Shown: piece by piece, positions 14,146-22,986 of the stretch
How the letters are laid out: each line of letters begins with the position of its first letter
Position numbering within the stretch: the first letter of the stretch is position 1
Program-made: the position numbers and the translations under genes
The notes under the pieces: model-generated
Told to the model about the DNA's origin: nothing
Seen by the model: only the letters and a program-made list of their open reading frames with translations
Databases searched by the model: none
Source of the DNA: Planctomycetota bacterium
GTDB lineage: Bacteria; Planctomycetota; Phycisphaerae; SM23-33
Direction of reading: 5' to 3'
Length of the DNA stretch: 32,000 nt
Assembly: GCA_022705325.1 (NCBI GenBank)
Contig: JAKJER010000009.1
Location: 38,532 to 70,531 of the forward strand

Positions 14146-17100
14146 ATGGCCGGCAAGCGGTGGACTCAGAAGTGGCACCAGGATCAGATCACCAGTTTCA
14201 AGGCCCAGCGGACCGCGTACGAGATCTATGCCCTGCTCCTGAACAAGGTGCTGGAGAAGGTCTGCCACAGGCACACGCAGTACGGACGGGCTGAGGCCCG
14301 GGCAAAGTCGGTGACGAGCTTCGCGGAGAAGGCCATCCGCAAGTTCGACAAGTACGACGATCCGATCCACATGTTCACCGACCTGTGCGGGGGCAGAACG
14401 GTTACTTTCACCCAGACCGAGGCGGACCGCGTCTGCACGTTTGTCCGGGCCAACTTCATCGTCGACGAAGACAACAGCGAAGACGTCCGCAAGCGCCTCA
14501 AGCCGGACCAGTTCGGCTACCGGGCGATCCACTACATCGTGCAAATGCCCTGGATGGCGATGACGGGCAGGCCGCCGCTTGCGGACGAGCTTGCGCGGAT
14601 CGGCCAGGACGAGAACATCCGCGACAGCGCAGCCCTTGGCAAGGCCCTGAACGTGATCGGTGATGGGCTTTCCGACATCCTGATAGGCCAGGCCGTCAAG
14701 GAGACGTTCAAGGACATCAAGGAACTGCAGGCCGAGCTGGTCAAGGAGGCTGATGGCCGGCGGGCGGTCATGACACCCGAGGGCGCGACCATGCTCTGCA
14801 CCGCGATGGAGGAGGTCGCACGGGAGCTTCCCGACGGTCTGGCAAGAAAGTGGAAGATAGAAAGCCCCATTGATGTCGCGAGGATCATCGCCAACCGCAA
14901 GGCCGAGATCCAGGTGCACACCGCTCTTCAGAACGCGTGGTCGGCCATCGGTCACGATCGACTCTACAAGAATGACTACAGGGTCCCGCCCGCCCTGACG
15001 AGGCAGATGCATCGCGTGGCGGCGCTGCTGGAAGAGGGCGACGAGGAGTTGGCGCGGGCGATCGCCCAGTTCGATGAGTTCGCGCTGGACTACGGGGCCT
15101 ACATGGCCCGGTCCGATCGCCACCGGGAGTTTCTCAAGTGGCGCTCCGTCCTCCGCCGTCAGGTCGATACTCCTGCGGAGCAGTCTGCGCTGGCCTTGAA
15201 AGCGGCGGGATTTGCCGTGTCAAACGAGGACTGGGATGGGGCTATCGACGTGCTCCAGCTTATGAAGGACAAGAGCAGCGCGGCTCTTCGCGAACTGGGC
15301 CGGGCGAAGCTCCGCAAGGGAGACCTGAGCGGTCTGGAGGACCTCACTACGGCGGCCGACGGAACCAACGGGGATTGCTTTGCCCACTGTCATTTGGGCG
15401 AGTTCCACTGTGCCAGAGCCTGCGGCAAAGGGATTCCGCCGAACCCCGGGGGGGACTCGGACTGCAGTAAGGCCGTCAGCCATTTTGCGGAGGCCTTCAA
15501 GACAGCCCCGGAAGACCCGACTGTGCTTCGGCTGTACCTGGAATGCGGGATCTGCATGAACGGACAGGCGAAAGCCCTTCCGCTGCTGAGGCCCGCCCTG
15601 GAGGCTGCCACCCGGAAATCCCGCCAGCGGGCCGACATCCGCCTGCACATGCCGCGAGCCTTGTACGACATCGGAGAATTCTGTCTCCTGCTAGACCAGC
15701 CCTATGAAAGCCTCGACGCCTACACGCGGGCGGTCTTTCTCAGCGAGAGCCTCTCCCCGATCGAAGAGGCCCTGGCTTCGCTGGCCCGGATTCAACGGGG
15801 GATCAGCCCTTCGGCATCGCCCTTGAACGAACACCTGGGCTGGGTGAGGAAGTTCCTTCTGCTGGCGAAGCTGGCTAAGTCGCAACAACTGGCGACGCAG
15901 GCCCCGCTCGAACACTCTCGACGCCTGGAGATCCTCCAGGACGCCATGGCCTACGAACAGGTGAGAGAGAAGGAACTCGATGAAAGGAAGGCCGAACGGG
16001 AAGGCATGGAGCGGCAGACGTCGCCCAGGACGGTGGAACAGAAGAGACTTCGCCTGCAGGAATTGAAGGAAGCCCGCAGGGCCGAGCAAGACGCACTGGA
16101 CCTGCTGAACGAGGCCAGACAGGATACCCGGGAAGCACAAGAGCTGGCCGACAAGGCCAAGGCGGAAATCACGCGCTCCGGGGAGAAGGCCGACGAGGCG
16201 CTGAAGGCGTTCCGGGCGCTCTCGCTGGCCAGCCGCTGGCAGGGGAAGCCCGACCCGCTGAGGGGGAGGAAGGTCGTCATTGTTGTCGGCACGACCGACC
16301 CAAGGTTCGAGCAGCAAATGAAGGCGTACAAGTCGCTGATCACCGAGGCGTTCGACGGCTTTTGTGGGACGATCACGTCGGCTGGAACGACCTCCGGGGT
16401 GGGCTCGATCGTCGGTGACGTGCAAGCGAAGCTCGGTTCAGACGTCCAGAGCGTCTGCTACCTGCCCGGCACCACGCCGGACGAACTGCCCGGCGGGGCC
16501 GTCCTGGACACGCGATACACCCACCCGGTCTTTACGGGGGGCAAGCGGTTCAGCCCCCTGGAGCCCCTGCAATACTGGATTGACATTGTGGCCGCCGGCG
16601 TGAGACCCGAAGACGTGAAGGTCCTGGGGATCGACGGGGGCCGGATCGCCGCATGCGAATACCATTTCGCGTTGGCCCTGGGCGCCTGCGTGGCGGTGCT
16701 GGAGAAGGGCGGGCGCGAAGCGGCCAGGCTGCTCCCCGACGAGGACTGGGGCATGGCCGAGCGGTTGCTCGTGCTGCCTCGCGAGGCCGCGATGATCCAC
16801 GAGTACCTCTGGAGCGCGGACCAGCCCTGCCCGGCGGCGATCGAGCCCAAGCTTGAGGACCTGGCCAGGAAAATACACGACGCCTATTGCCAGGAGCAAC
16901 TGGACAAGATCAGGCAGAGGACGGGGAGCTACGTGCTGTGGGACGATCTGCGGCAAGTGTTCAAGGACTCGAACCTGGCGCAGGCGAGGCACTACTTTGA
17001 GACGCTGCGCTGCGGGAATCTCCAGGTTCGCGAGGTGCAGGGCCGGTCCGTCATGCTGCCTGATTGGGCCCTGACCGACGAGGAGTTGAAGCGAGAGGGG

Positions 17101-17376
17101 CGCACAGTCTCGGCTGAGCAGCGCGAGATCAACCGCCGCCTGTTGGACACCATGGCGCGGGCCGAGCACGCTCGATTCGTGGTGGAGAGATATCTGGCCG
17201 GTTGGAAATGGGGCGAAGAGAAGGACGAAAAGGCGAAGACCAATCCCACGCTCATCTCGTGGCGCGATCTGAGCGAATCGGTTCGGGAACTGGACCGAAC
17301 TGCTGTTCGCAACATCCCCAAGTTCCTGCGCGAACTCAACCTGGAAGTGGTTCCAGAAGGGGACGGCAAGTCCTGA
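14146..17376 (+). CDS. Multidomain protein (1,076 aa): RelA/SpoT-type nucleotide pyrophosphokinase (small-alarmone-synthetase-like) + helical TPR-like region + coiled coil + SLOG (TRPM/LSDAT-like) + RyR-domain tail
   Basis: A strong SD AAGGAG at 14133-14138 lies 7 nt before the ATG at 14146. Synthetase motifs occur in order: RAKSVTSFAEKAIRK (14299-14343), DLCGGR (14380-14397), GYRAIHYIV (14515-14541), EIQVHT (14905-14922), HDRLYK. A charged coiled coil spans ~15895-16215. The SLOG-like Rossmann domain (~16264-16810) contains VVIVVGTTD..., GTITSAGTTSGVGSIVGD and VAVLEKGGREAARLL. The RyR tail is at 16852-17352. Confidence 0.88.
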   Translation: MAGKRWTQKWHQDQITSFKAQRTAYEIYALLLNKVLEKVCHRHTQYGRAEARAKSVTSFAEKAIRKFDKYDDPIHMFTDLCGGRTVTFTQTEADRVCTFVRANFIVDEDNSEDVRKRLKPDQFGYRAIHYIVQMPWMAMTGRPPLADELARIGQDENIRDSAALGKALNVIGDGLSDILIGQAVKETFKDIKELQAELVKEADGRRAVMTPEGATMLCTAMEEVARELPDGLARKWKIESPIDVARIIANRKAEIQVHTALQNAWSAIGHDRLYKNDYRVPPALTRQMHRVAALLEEGDEELARAIAQFDEFALDYGAYMARSDRHREFLKWRSVLRRQVDTPAEQSALALKAAGFAVSNEDWDGAIDVLQLMKDKSSAALRELGRAKLRKGDLSGLEDLTTAADGTNGDCFAHCHLGEFHCARACGKGIPPNPGGDSDCSKAVSHFAEAFKTAPEDPTVLRLYLECGICMNGQAKALPLLRPALEAATRKSRQRADIRLHMPRALYDIGEFCLLLDQPYESLDAYTRAVFLSESLSPIEEALASLARIQRGISPSASPLNEHLGWVRKFLLLAKLAKSQQLATQAPLEHSRRLEILQDAMAYEQVREKELDERKAEREGMERQTSPRTVEQKRLRLQELKEARRAEQDALDLLNEARQDTREAQELADKAKAEITRSGEKADEALKAFRALSLASRWQGKPDPLRGRKVVIVVGTTDPRFEQQMKAYKSLITEAFDGFCGTITSAGTTSGVGSIVGDVQAKLGSDVQSVCYLPGTTPDELPGGAVLDTRYTHPVFTGGKRFSPLEPLQYWIDIVAAGVRPEDVKVLGIDGGRIAACEYHFALALGACVAVLEKGGREAARLLPDEDWGMAERLLVLPREAAMIHEYLWSADQPCPAAIEPKLEDLARKIHDAYCQEQLDKIRQRTGSYVLWDDLRQVFKDSNLAQARHYFETLRCGNLQVREVQGRSVMLPDWALTDEELKREGRTVSAEQREINRRLLDTMARAEHARFVVERYLAGWKWGEEKDEKAKTNPTLISWRDLSESVRELDRTAVRNIPKFLRELNLEVVPEGDGKS
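16852..17352 (+). other. Bipartite RyR-domain tail of the synthetase-SLOG protein
   Basis: LARKIHDAYCQEQL...VLWDDLRQVFKDSNLAQARHY ... MARAEHARFVVERYLAGWKWGEEKDEKAKTNPTLISWRDLSESVRELDRTAVRNIPKFL. The second half fits the RyR repeat consensus (EH-x2-W/F ... GW-x-x-G ... hP-x-L-x-x-(Y/W)-x-x-L ... DR). Confidence 0.75.
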
Positions 17377-17547
17377 AGGAGTGCTGCGGGGCTGGCGTTT
17401 CTTCGTCAGAGACTGCTGATAGGCCCCGCAAAGCCGACCCGCCGAAAAGAATGGACGCATGTGCGGGCGGCGGTACAATACAGTTGGTCCGCGCGTTTGA
17501 CGGTGTGGCAGCTCAAGGTCCAGTCGCCAGAAGACCGGAGGTGGTGC

Positions 17548-22536: not shown

Positions 22537-22578
22537 GTCTGGCCGCTTGTTTCATTTCTGTCAAGTCATCCGATCGGT

Positions 22579-22986
22579 CTATCCGCGTGCGGCCCACGAT
22601 CGGGCCAGATCGCTCCACCCGTCGGTCAAATCATAATCAAGCAACTGCGCCATGGGGATCCACGCGTGCTTGTCGTGCTCCTCGCTCAGCGCGAATGTCC
22701 CGCCGATGACCGCAGTCTCCATGCAGAGCGTTGCCACCCGGACCTTCTCCATCTCGAACCCGAACGCCCCCGCGACGCCCAACACCTCAACGGAGAGCCC
22801 CGTTTCTTCCGTCACTTCGCGCCGCAGGGCTGCATCGAATGTCTCGCCGGGGTCCATCTTCCCGCCGGGCAATTCCCATCGTCCGACGAATCGCTTGCAC
22901 GCGTTAGCGCGGCGGAGCAGCAGGCAGTGACCGTGCTCGTTGCGAATCACCGCCCGGACGGCCAAGCTGTAGGGTTTGGCGAGCAT
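22579..22986 (-). CDS. Nudix hydrolase (135 aa), directly upstream of and co-oriented with the AAA+/RyR gene
   Basis: The Nudix box is read directly: GGKMDPGETFDAALRREVTEETGL (G-x5-E-x7-REUxEExGU). SD GGGAGAAGG precedes the ATG at 22986 (MLAKPYSLAVRAVIRNEHGHCLLLRR). The longer listed start at 23034 has no SD and adds MARRAKGFVSSNREKA. Confidence 0.85.
   Translation of the reverse strand: MLAKPYSLAVRAVIRNEHGHCLLLRRANACKRFVGRWELPGGKMDPGETFDAALRREVTEETGLSVEVLGVAGAFGFEMEKVRVATLCMETAVIGGTFALSEEHDKHAWIPMAQLLDYDLTDGWSDLARSWAARG

Follow-up and report, generated by a model that had tools for sequence, protein, structure and literature searches.

RyR-domain tails on an alarmone synthetase, an RCK protein and an AAA+ ATPase: parts of a candidate nucleotide-signalling system in bacteria and archaea

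A stretch of 32,000 nucleotides from a Planctomycetota bacterium (GenBank assembly GCA_022705325.1, contig JAKJER010000009.1, positions 38,532 to 70,531; this whole stretch is called the window, and positions are counted from its first letter) carries an island of five genes, here named A, S, B, C and D. Three of them, A, B and C, encode large proteins with unrelated heads that end in the same tail, a tandem of ryanodine-receptor repeat (RyR) domains; D encodes a Nudix hydrolase and S a small Cys-rich protein. The RyR sensor-tailed proteins probably make up an undescribed nucleotide-signalling system with a role in stress or defence. A more specific account is favoured here, although it is given a little less than an even chance: the tail would be a shared nucleotide receptor that gates three outputs around an RSH/Nudix alarmone core, its likeliest ligand would be NAD+-derived, and the whole would serve conflict or stress rather than ion housekeeping.

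That the three tails are mutually homologous domains of the RyR type had been proposed from the sequence, and Pfam, BLASTP and the fold of a model of A all bear this out. Pfam matches were judged as bits against the gathering score (GA) of the family. The RyR family (PF02026, GA 27.4) gave 40.4 bits in A, 69.1 in B and 31.5 in C, and in scans of 30 A, 21 B and 30 C family members it was matched in 30, 19 and 30, respectively. When compared by BLASTP, the tails of A and B matched each other at 1.6e-18 over 167 aa, those of B and C at 8e-10 and those of A and C at 5e-5. The second half of the A tail also matches the first half of the B tail (5e-4), so the bipartite tail consists of two RyR repeats. 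The original prediction had recognized two parts and had assigned the second to RyR, which stands; the refinement is that the first part is an RyR repeat as well, shortened by the loss of the GWxxG loop. Structures were modelled with AlphaFold2 and compared with the PDB using Foldseek. In the PDB the A model comes closest to human RyR3 Repeat12 (R12) structures, with which it aligns over approximately 203 columns (TMt 0.52-0.64); complexes with ATP, AMP-PCP and ADP plus dantrolene are among them. The profile of the C family matches RyR R12 structures with an E value of 1e-30. The tail is a two-repeat fold of the R12 type, in A by model and in B and C by homology only. It occupies residues 900-1070 of A (16843-17355, plus strand), residues 435-587 of B (19186-19647, plus strand) and residues 795-958 of C (19660-20154, minus strand).

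RyR-domain proteins of phages are the subject of a preprint of May 2026. The phage PF02026 protein RyDEP binds 2'cADPR and 3'cADPR (cyclic ADP-ribose isomers) in a pocket formed by H75, W78, H100 and D117, in which H75 and D117 are the glycosidase dyad that cleaves the cADPR isomers, while other phage RyDEP homologues act as sponges with nM affinity (PMC13232231). The equivalent residues of human RyR3 R12 contact adenine ligands and dantrolene (PMC13232231). The original prediction regarded the role of bacterial RyR domains as unknown, a remark now out of date, as RyR-domain proteins bind or cleave 2'/3'cADPR (PMC13232231). The second repeat of the B tail aligns without gaps to a RyDEP chain (PDB 35tm_A; HMMER) with identical spacing of the pocket residues (+3/+25/+42; the chain index is offset by one), and H523, W526, H548 and D565 of B correspond to H75, W78, H100 and D117 of RyDEP.

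Conservation of these positions was counted in family alignments of 54 A, 21 B and 30 C sequences. In repeat 2 the equivalent of H75 is a His in 54/54 A, 19/19 B (2 of the 21 are gapped here) and 30/30 C sequences, that of W78 is aromatic in 100 % of the members of the A, B and C families, and that of D117 is an Asp in 54/54, 15/21 and 30/30. Numbered in the window proteins, H1008 and D1050 of the A tail are invariant and position 1011 is aromatic in 54/54, and H802, D829, N830, H879, W882 and D929 of the C tail are invariant in all 30. Repeat 1 has retained its His and its aromatic residue in all three families. Conservation of the pocket residues implies that selection acts on the pocket.

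Searching with the three tails also retrieved stand-alone tandem-RyR proteins of about 150-165 aa, which are common in bacteria (P0162-P0231) and could be the cellular equivalents of the sponges found among phage RyDEP proteins; one fusion of NUDIX and RyR (P0208) was found. Phage records matched a single RyR repeat only, which fits the homodimeric single-repeat phage proteins.

Gene A (14146-17376, plus strand) encodes a protein of 1076 aa. Its AlphaFold2 model (pLDDT 91.8, pTM 0.84) consists of a SAS-like (small alarmone synthetase) head, a TPR-like helical region, a long coiled-coil hairpin, a Rossmann-type domain and a helical tail, and its Foldseek matches come in the order human RyR3 Repeat12, B. 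subtilis SAS1/SAS2, TPR proteins and TRPM2 bound to ADP-ribose (ADPR) or dADPR. The head (residues 1-320; 14146-15105) is a RelA/SpoT-type pyrophosphokinase domain that scores 35.7 bits with RelA_SpoT (GA 27) and matches RelP/RelQ both by phmmer and by fold (TMt 0.65-0.78 with B. subtilis SAS1/SAS2); RelQ with pppGpp (PDB 5ded) is among the fold matches. The RSH catalytic motifs (RxKxxxS, DxxGxR, GYR..H, EIQ.RT and HD) are invariant or present in at least 51 of the 54 A members: R52, K54, D79, G82 and R84 occur in 53, the remaining one being gapped, and Y125, H129, E254, Q256, T259 and H270 are invariant. Residues 321-691 (15106-16218) form the TPR-like helical region with the coiled-coil hairpin, as judged from TPR Pfam matches in family members, the DSSP assignment of the model and Foldseek. 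The TPR-like region is universal in the A family, and repeats of the TPR-S sensor type were matched in 3 members. The SLOG domain (residues 705-890; 16258-16815), an LSDAT/TRPM-like Rossmann-type domain, is sub-threshold in the window protein (LSDAT_prok, 15.8 vs GA 25.4 bits, E 0.0087); LSDAT_prok was matched by 18 of 30 A relatives at E<0.01 (best 1e-6), and the A model matches TRPM2 bound to ADPR or dADPR (8e6s, 6pkx) with a probability of 1.0 and an E value of 1.6e-3. The predicted combination of a RelA/SpoT-type pyrophosphokinase and a SLOG domain in A was recovered, the latter, which is weak in the window protein, by way of the family members and the TRPM2 fold match.

The window protein belongs to a long subfamily of A (about 960-1090 aa), and most relatives have about 830-870 aa without the insertion and the hairpin. 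The insertion, a helical segment of about 100 aa inside the RSH domain (residues 140-235; 14563-14850), is present in 10/54 A members, all of the long subfamily, and the 130-aa coiled-coil hairpin before the SLOG domain (residues 559-691; 15820-16218) in 17/54. Shorter relatives of about 668 aa (P0065-P0067) combine RelA_SpoT with PF20308 (TPR-S sensor repeats) and have neither SLOG nor RyR; one of these proteins comes from a Promethearchaeota metagenome-assembled genome.

The architecture of A (RelA_SpoT, TPR, SLOG, RyR) is that of a family of >60 clusters. Contigs of GTDB genomes, one genome per species (185,579 species genomes), contain 490 A relatives, and the best 80 loci, which come from about 20 phyla of both domains, were surveyed by searching their six-frame open reading frames (ORFs) with the domains of the window. 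The bacterial loci include Planctomycetota, Chloroflexota, Gemmatimonadota, Actinomycetota, Bacteroidota, Pseudomonadota and Desulfobacterota, and the archaeal ones are from Bathyarchaeia, Thermoplasmata, Methanobacterium, Halobacteriota and Methanoregulaceae. In 40/80 loci a D-like Nudix gene overlaps A or is no more than 150 nt away; 38 of these genes share the strand of A and 29 are upstream of it. By comparison, only 8 D-like Nudix ORFs were found farther than 2 kb from A in about 1 Mb of flanking DNA. The pair is present in an isolate, Thiocapsa marina 5811 of the Pseudomonadota (L035). Fusions of NUDIX, RelA_SpoT and RyR make up ten protein clusters (P0053-P0057, P0059, P0061, P0062 and others), and such a fusion is also encoded in L081. 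A B-type gene is located within 3 kb of A in 22/80 loci. C-type genes are present in 2/80 (L018, L028), and there A, B, C and D occur together.

For C, with 268 relatives in metagenomes, 80 short C-centred loci (median 7.6 kb) were surveyed. Another RyR-tail gene abuts C in 15/80, this being A in 6 and B in 6, and a Nudix gene was found in none of these 80 short loci. In the window, D is situated directly upstream of C, as had been noted, at 42 nt from its annotated start. The Nudix protein as a partner of C was nevertheless rejected on the count of 0/80 C-centred loci; D probably serves A although it is placed with C, given that half of the surveyed A loci (40/80) have an adjoining Nudix gene and the C-centred loci have none. 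The conserved core is Nudix plus A, to which B and C are optional additions in varying combinations. The five-gene island put forward as a unit therefore survives in part: pairwise linkage recurs, but the full set is not a conserved block and the exact layout was found nowhere else.

Gene B (17884-19647, plus strand; 587 aa) starts with a channel-like segment of two transmembrane helices (2TM), which is followed by tandem RCK/TrkA_N domains and the RyR tail. TrkA_N scores 66.7 bits (GA 23.8) and was matched in 21/21 members. The profile of the family matches TrkA and GsuK in two stretches, so the RCK domain is present in tandem, and the description of the B head as a transmembrane segment with tandem RCK/TrkA-N domains was upheld. 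The K+ selectivity filter T[VI]GYG is absent from residues 1-115 of B, and no ion-channel Pfam family was matched in the 21 members.

Gene C (19660-22536, minus strand; 958 aa) combines a PfkB-fold domain, a MoxR-like AAA+ ATPase and the RyR tail; its true start is probably at 22476, as the homologues are about 938 aa in length. The family comprises 93 clusters in which the full-length architecture is conserved. The N-terminal domain (residues 21-465; 21142-22476, minus strand) was modelled with pLDDT 88.4 and pTM 0.91. Its top 50 Foldseek matches in the PDB are all kinases of the PfkB/ribokinase family (E 6.6e-9 to 2e-6, probability 1.0, TMt 0.41-0.56), such as LacC, HldA, ribokinase and pseudouridine kinase. 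No Pfam family, PfkB included, was matched by this domain in any of 30 C homologues. On alignment by eye, the DTxGAGD/GAGD catalytic motif is not recognizable, the conserved segment reading GxAYGxxSxFAA, and the domain may therefore bind rather than phosphorylate. The AAA+ core (residues 480-780; 20197-21099, minus strand) is 0.1 bit short of the cut-off in the window protein (AAA, 21.1 vs GA 21.2 bits), and bpMoxR is also below its cut-off (E 4.5e-5); among 30 C homologues, AAA was matched in 30 (E<=0.01) and bpMoxR in 26, and the Walker A sequence GPPGAGKS and the Walker B residues DE are invariant in all 30. The proposed PfkB-like plus AAA+ head of C holds, with PfkB recognized at the level of the fold only and AAA+ through the family and its Walker motifs. 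Two proteins from Fusarium, P0160 and P0161 (920 and 1158 aa), resemble C in its central AAA+ part (E values of 4e-51 and 4e-39), which suggests a fungal branch of the C ATPase family without the RyR tail.

Gene D (22579-23034, minus strand; 151 aa) was correctly called a Nudix hydrolase: the NUDIX family scores 81.1 bits (GA 21.1) and the Nudix box GX5EX7REUXEEXGU is present (GGKMDPGETFDAALRREVTEETGL). The protein is MutT-like, in that the closest NCBIfam models are of the MutT type, all below cut-off. It matches the PADLOC candidate model PDC-S07 (7.6e-21).

The surroundings of the A, B and C relatives are given here as counts and examples. Large DUF4062-NACHT/STAND proteins with TPR or WD40 repeats are encoded in 38/80 A loci, where several overlap or abut A (L015, L049, L057, L021, L059); ClpB-like ATPases are encoded in 11/80 and SLOG-SLATT_1 proteins in 5/80. 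A recurrent operon in Gemmatimonadota consists of a TIR-like gene, a gene for a BtpA-family TIM-barrel protein, A, Nudix and sometimes B (L024 871-5301, L030 8032-12947, L038 8135-12863, L050 4854-9394, L027 405-6527). The TIR-like gene of this operon has no Pfam match and matches the PADLOC TIR effector model at 1e-9. A gene for a ClpB-like double-AAA protein is often located nearby on the opposite strand. TIR-like genes accompany only some A relatives, namely these five loci and L081, in which a Nudix-RSH-RyR fusion is followed by two DUF4062-STAND genes, a C homologue, a TIR gene, a DUF4062-NACHT gene, a transposase gene and three TIR_2 genes. The L081 island (1-22778 of a 27.5-kb contig) holds three DUF4062-STAND-TPR genes, five genes with TIR/TIR_2 matches, a DDE transposase gene and one for a P-II protein. 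Plasmid pA of Methylobacterium sp. FF17 carries a full-length C homologue (35 % identity, 1e-141) beside genes for a giant SIR2 protein and a transposase, and on a plasmid of Arcobacter sp. AZ-2023, TrkA_N, tandem-RyR and DUF4062-TPR genes are found between those for a type I restriction subunit, an integrase and recombinases. The latter arrangement, a stand-alone tandem-RyR protein (L214 5878-6378) between a TrkA_N protein without transmembrane helices and a DUF4062-TPR protein, resembles a "split B". All 30 A members match the PADLOC candidate PDC-S33 (best 8e-19). These contexts lean to a conflict or defence role and to NAD+-consuming partners, although many loci, the window included, are without such partners. 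Where defence and housekeeping had been regarded as equally open, the neighbourhoods tip somewhat towards conflict. The island as a phage- or plasmid-borne element was dropped as a candidate after searches of viral and plasmid sequences gave no full-length A.

In the favoured account the Repeat12-like RyR pair would be a nucleotide-binding module, through which one ligand of the adenine-nucleotide or ADP-ribose class could control three output proteins. A would be the core; in it the SLOG and RyR sensors at the C-terminus, possibly together with the TPR region, would control the N-terminal SAS-type pyrophosphokinase. The head could make a 3'-pyrophosphorylated nucleotide, an alarmone of the (p)ppGpp/(p)ppApp class, or pyrophosphorylate a macromolecular target, with growth arrest as the outcome. 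The MutT-like Nudix protein would remove the product of A as an eraser or antidote, akin to the SAH (small alarmone hydrolase) antitoxins that remove the product of the toxSAS, the toxic SAS enzymes (10.1101/575399); ppGpp-degrading Nudix enzymes also provide a precedent (cited in PMC3153485). B and C may be optional, parallel effectors on the same ligand, B as a membrane device for ion flux and C as an ATP-driven machine acting via the predicted ribose- or nucleoside-binding PfkB-fold domain. The ligand would most likely be NAD+-derived, either ADPR or of the cADPR type, and could be supplied by TIR-like, DUF4062-STAND or SIR2 partners at loci that have them, or by NAD+ turnover during stress or infection. 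Such a ligand is slightly preferred over the product of A itself because the documented ligands of RyR and LSDAT-type SLOG domains are of that class, because TIR-like, DUF4062 and SIR2 neighbours recur, and because sensor-bearing proteins elsewhere are effectors; a self-made ligand is nearly as likely.

A number of observations weigh against this account. In the pocket, the repeat 2 equivalent of H100, a phosphate contact, is variable in all three families (Ser, His, Asn or Asp), and the repeat 1 equivalent of D117 is a Ser in A and B and an Asp in C. The five window genes match no known PADLOC system, only the candidate single-gene models PDC-S07 and PDC-S33. Genes for TIR, SIR2 or other NAD+-consuming proteins are absent from the window and, within 10 kb, from most A loci. 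PLSDB plasmids gave no full-length A match at E<=1e-10; on viral contigs A was matched only by short SAS-like sequences and C by a single partial sequence, neither at full length. C has been found alone among housekeeping genes (L082, L083), as has A (L084). The D protein is MutT-like, not ADPRase-like, which fits the erasure of an NTP-like alarmone and is silent on ADPR. By analogy with RyR3 R12, which also binds ATP and ADP, the ligand could be an ordinary energy-charge nucleotide. The roles given above to ligand, product and phenotype are drawn from homology and gene context.

Two other accounts retain the tail as a ligand sensor. Possible, though on the doubtful side, is a self-contained writer-reader-eraser circuit in which the product of A would be read by the RyR tails and the SLOG domain of A, B and C, giving feedback in A and activation in B and C, while the TPR region of A would sense the trigger and the Nudix protein would erase the signal. 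The window and the commonest minimal unit (Nudix plus A, 40/80) encode no other candidate signal generator, a unit spread over about 20 phyla should be self-sufficient, and fusions of writer and eraser exist; SAS enzymes are, moreover, allosterically activated by their own product (RelQ with pppGpp, PDB 5ded), and sensor-type TPR-S repeats are found in 3 A members. Known messenger systems, on the other hand, have their sensors on the effectors, with a separate protein as the generator. Neither sensor type has a documented ligand that is 3'-pyrophosphorylated, those on record being of the ADPR class or plain adenine nucleotides; it would be unusual for an enzyme to have two different sensor domains for its own product; and the TIR-like and SIR2 neighbours would be left without a role. 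Decidedly unlikely is a housekeeping function in energy and ion homeostasis, by which the tails would sense an ATP/ADP-like metabolite and coordinate K+ or cation flux (B), alarmone level (A plus Nudix) and the ATPase (C) in starvation or osmotic stress. The RCK/TrkA_N domains of B resemble K+ transport regulators, RyR3 R12 binds ATP and ADP (6uhh and 9l9b are among the fold matches), the window island is flanked by the metabolic genes FlpD, MTHFR and glutamate synthase, and the solitary A and C homologues (L082-L084) and the lack of a match to a known PADLOC defence system agree with such a function. It fits poorly with a distribution that is very patchy (490/185,579 species genomes over both domains), with a variable accessory gene content, with the frequency of STAND, WD40, TIR-like and SLOG-SLATT neighbours, with plasmid copies beside SIR2, restriction and recombinase genes, with the missing K+ selectivity filter of B and with the match of all A members to a PADLOC defence-candidate model.

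The original prediction had left undecided whether the tail is an adaptor or a common ligand sensor, and the evidence favours the sensor. As a homotypic adaptor the tail would join A, B and C in one complex by RyR-RyR contacts without any ligand, in the manner of effector-associated domains (EADs); two EADs of neighbouring genes resemble each other more than they resemble other copies (PMC7159879). The tail is indeed common to otherwise unrelated neighbouring genes, as EADs are, and single-repeat RyR proteins (RyDEP and a Bacteroides protein) homodimerise (PMC13232231). At 21 loci with both A and B, tail pairs from the same locus scored a mean of 95.8 bits as against 91.7 across loci (permutation p = 0.016); the ranks of the own-locus partners range from 1 to 21, with 8/21 in the top 3. 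A-A tails scored 125 bits and B-B tails 127 bits, as compared with about 95 for A-B. The tails follow the head family, not the locus, and show at most a faint locus signal, which can be explained by shared ancestry. Moreover, the two repeats of each tail already pair with each other in a single chain, like those of R12, which leaves the dimer interface occupied; the invariant positions are pocket residues, not surfaces; A with its tail occurs alone in many genomes; and stand-alone tandem-RyR proteins are common. An adaptor function is very unlikely as a result, and the sensor is favoured on account of the pairing of the repeats within the chain, the invariant pocket, the weak co-variation of adjacent tails and the retention of the tail where A stands alone. 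That three independent RyR-domain genes and a Nudix gene are neighbours by chance, finally, is effectively refuted and given next to no weight. Such a coincidence would agree with the unique arrangement of the five window genes and with the presence of C in only 2/80 A loci, but not with pairwise adjacency that recurs across unrelated phyla (Nudix and A in 40/80, B in 22/80 and C next to A or B in 12/80 C-centred loci), with the existence of fusions, or with the concentration of Nudix genes within 150 nt of A. The genes are, in short, co-localized in other genomes, as the island interpretation had implied.

The proposed RyR-tailed system shares parts with several described ones. RyDEP and RyR3 R12 have the same domain family and fold and the same His, aromatic and Asp residues in the pocket, and R12 likewise has two repeats in one chain that bind adenine nucleotides. 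The RyDEP proteins, however, are small, single-repeat, dimerising phage proteins that act as anti-defence glycosidases or sponges, whereas the tandem module described here is located at the C-terminus of large cellular proteins, predicted enzymes and a membrane protein. The toxSAS modules (FaRel/ATfaRel and CapRel; 10.1101/575399, 10.1101/2021.04.30.441581) similarly pair a SAS synthetase with a gene, often overlapping, whose product could degrade what the synthetase makes. They are small single-domain enzymes, whereas members of the A family have 760-1090 aa with TPR, SLOG and RyR, and the partner of A, a putative neutraliser, is a Nudix protein, not SAH or another described antitoxin. As in Thoeris, CBASS, Pycsar and type III CRISPR systems, one sensor domain is found on diverse effector heads, ligands of SLOG and RyR are of the ADPR class, and TIR-like genes accompany some relatives. 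The window differs in having neither a TIR nor a cyclase generator, and no described type of these systems has RSH, 2TM-RCK and PfkB-AAA+ heads or an RyR sensor.

A small domain shared by adjacent genes is also characteristic of the EAD-coupled NTPase conflict systems (PMC7159879), which resemble the present loci in their DUF4062/NACHT/TPR/WD40 STAND neighbours and in the bpMoxR match of the C ATPase. The present loci lack the vWA/MoxR-vWA ternary core, there being neither a vWA nor a STAND gene among the window genes, and their shared domain has a conserved ligand pocket and no clear co-variation between adjacent copies. MthK, GsuK and TrkA share with B the tandem RCK/TrkA_N domains after a two-helix membrane segment; B differs in having neither the T[VI]GYG filter nor an Ion_trans_2 match and in the addition of a C-terminal RyR module. 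In TRPM2 (SLOG in MHR1/2 plus a NUDT9-H Nudix domain) and in the ryanodine receptors (R12/R34), LSDAT-type SLOG, Nudix and RyR repeats are the same modules that here occur with an ion-channel-like partner in one prokaryotic neighbourhood. The prokaryotic proteins have no TRP or RyR pore and carry the modules on an alarmone synthetase, an RCK protein and an ATPase instead; an evolutionary connection between the prokaryotic modules and TRPM2/RyR is inferred.

The original prediction knew of no defence or signalling system of this composition, and likewise no published description of the network was found, nor a match to a known PADLOC system; the RSH-SLOG-RyR architecture could be listed in Burroughs et al. 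2015 (NAR), from which the LSDAT/SLOG definitions stem. An NCBIfam equivalog is lacking for each of the five proteins. The 2011 census of RSH proteins is silent on RyR and TPR and names Nudix only in other contexts; the 2019 toxSAS preprint (10.1101/575399) contains no mention of RyR, TPR or Nudix, and RyR is absent from the conflict-system papers PMC9503650 and PMC7159879. In the literature searched, no biological paper mentions both RyR and SLOG, and the RyDEP preprint (PMC13232231) treats phage proteins only. The principles (sensor-fused effectors, writer/eraser pairs and toxSAS modules) are known; the sensor, the heads and their combination appear to be undescribed.

If the favoured account holds, cellular RyR-domain proteins would acquire a role; characterization, in 2026, has been confined to the phage versions. 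Prokaryotic nucleotide signalling would gain a new sensor class, RyR/R12, together with new heads (an alarmone synthetase, an RCK membrane protein and a PfkB-AAA+ protein), and alarmone chemistry would be connected with NAD+/ADPR signalling. As TRPM2 and RyR channels handle their ligands through SLOG, Nudix and RyR repeats, both the origin of these modules and the possible binding of cADPR-type messengers by RyR repeats become testable in simple bacterial proteins. The interest of the network lies in its wide distribution, its testability and its link with the ligand sensors of TRPM2 and RyR. A bolder form of the account, which is rather unlikely, is that of a new and widespread anti-phage or stress immune system, in which RyR domains of the R12 type would read an ADPR-class or RSH-made signal, open a 2TM-RCK channel, switch on the synthetase and drive the PfkB-AAA+ protein, and whose toolkit would be the source of the ligand sensors of TRPM2 and the ryanodine receptors. 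If the latter were true, R12 and R34 of animal RyRs would be relic second-messenger receptors.

All five ORFs of the island are present in the window as predicted, and the stop codons of B and C are separated by the reported 12 nt. An identical copy of A is located on a JGI metagenome contig (3300010344). The G+C content of the window is approximately 62-69 % throughout, without a compositional break, and a scan for promoters and terminators gave nothing exceeding shuffled expectation. Long ORFs at 19798-21291 (plus), 15691-16425 (minus), 17554-18747 (minus) and 10302-14006 (minus) were rejected as genes; they are antisense or overlapping frames of up to 1234 aa, typical of DNA with 65 % G+C. 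Cluster 4 of the neighbour analysis was dismissed as an antisense artefact of high G+C. Directly upstream of the island, an ORF of 4629 aa (66-13955, plus strand) has 13 RHS-repeat matches, five Big_9 and several cadherin-like domains; its C-terminal 550 or so residues have no Pfam match, and it may be a polymorphic-toxin-type protein. Downstream (23815-30927, plus strand) are a gene for an FlpD/MvhD-like protein, one for an MTHFR-like protein that overlaps it by 17 nt, and genes for glutamate-synthase-like subunits (Fer4 plus Glu_synthase; GATase_6 plus GXGXG). This is a redox/C1-metabolism cluster of the anaerobe type and is unrelated to the island.

The small gene S (17548-17874, plus strand) lies between A and B, 9 nt from the latter, and encodes 108 aa, or 137 aa from an alternative start at 17461; the former start is the most likely one, the JGI gene caller also giving 108 aa. 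No Pfam family was matched. S is a real gene, as 60 homologous clusters were found at E<=1e-3 in a representative library of 1.8 billion proteins, and the small Cys-rich ORF of the original prediction thus belongs to a genuine family; S as a general component of the system was rejected, however, with no homologue in any of the 80 A loci. On two other contigs S follows a B-type RCK-RyR gene (L086 690-1022, L087 517-849), and it may belong with B. Members of the family are Cys-rich (CC...CxxC) and about 108-118 aa in length, and on other contigs an unannotated protein of 366-437 aa comes next. In one further case (L088 7198-7524) the S homologue follows a sigma-54 activator gene, with a Nudix gene and a BrnT/BrnA pair nearby.

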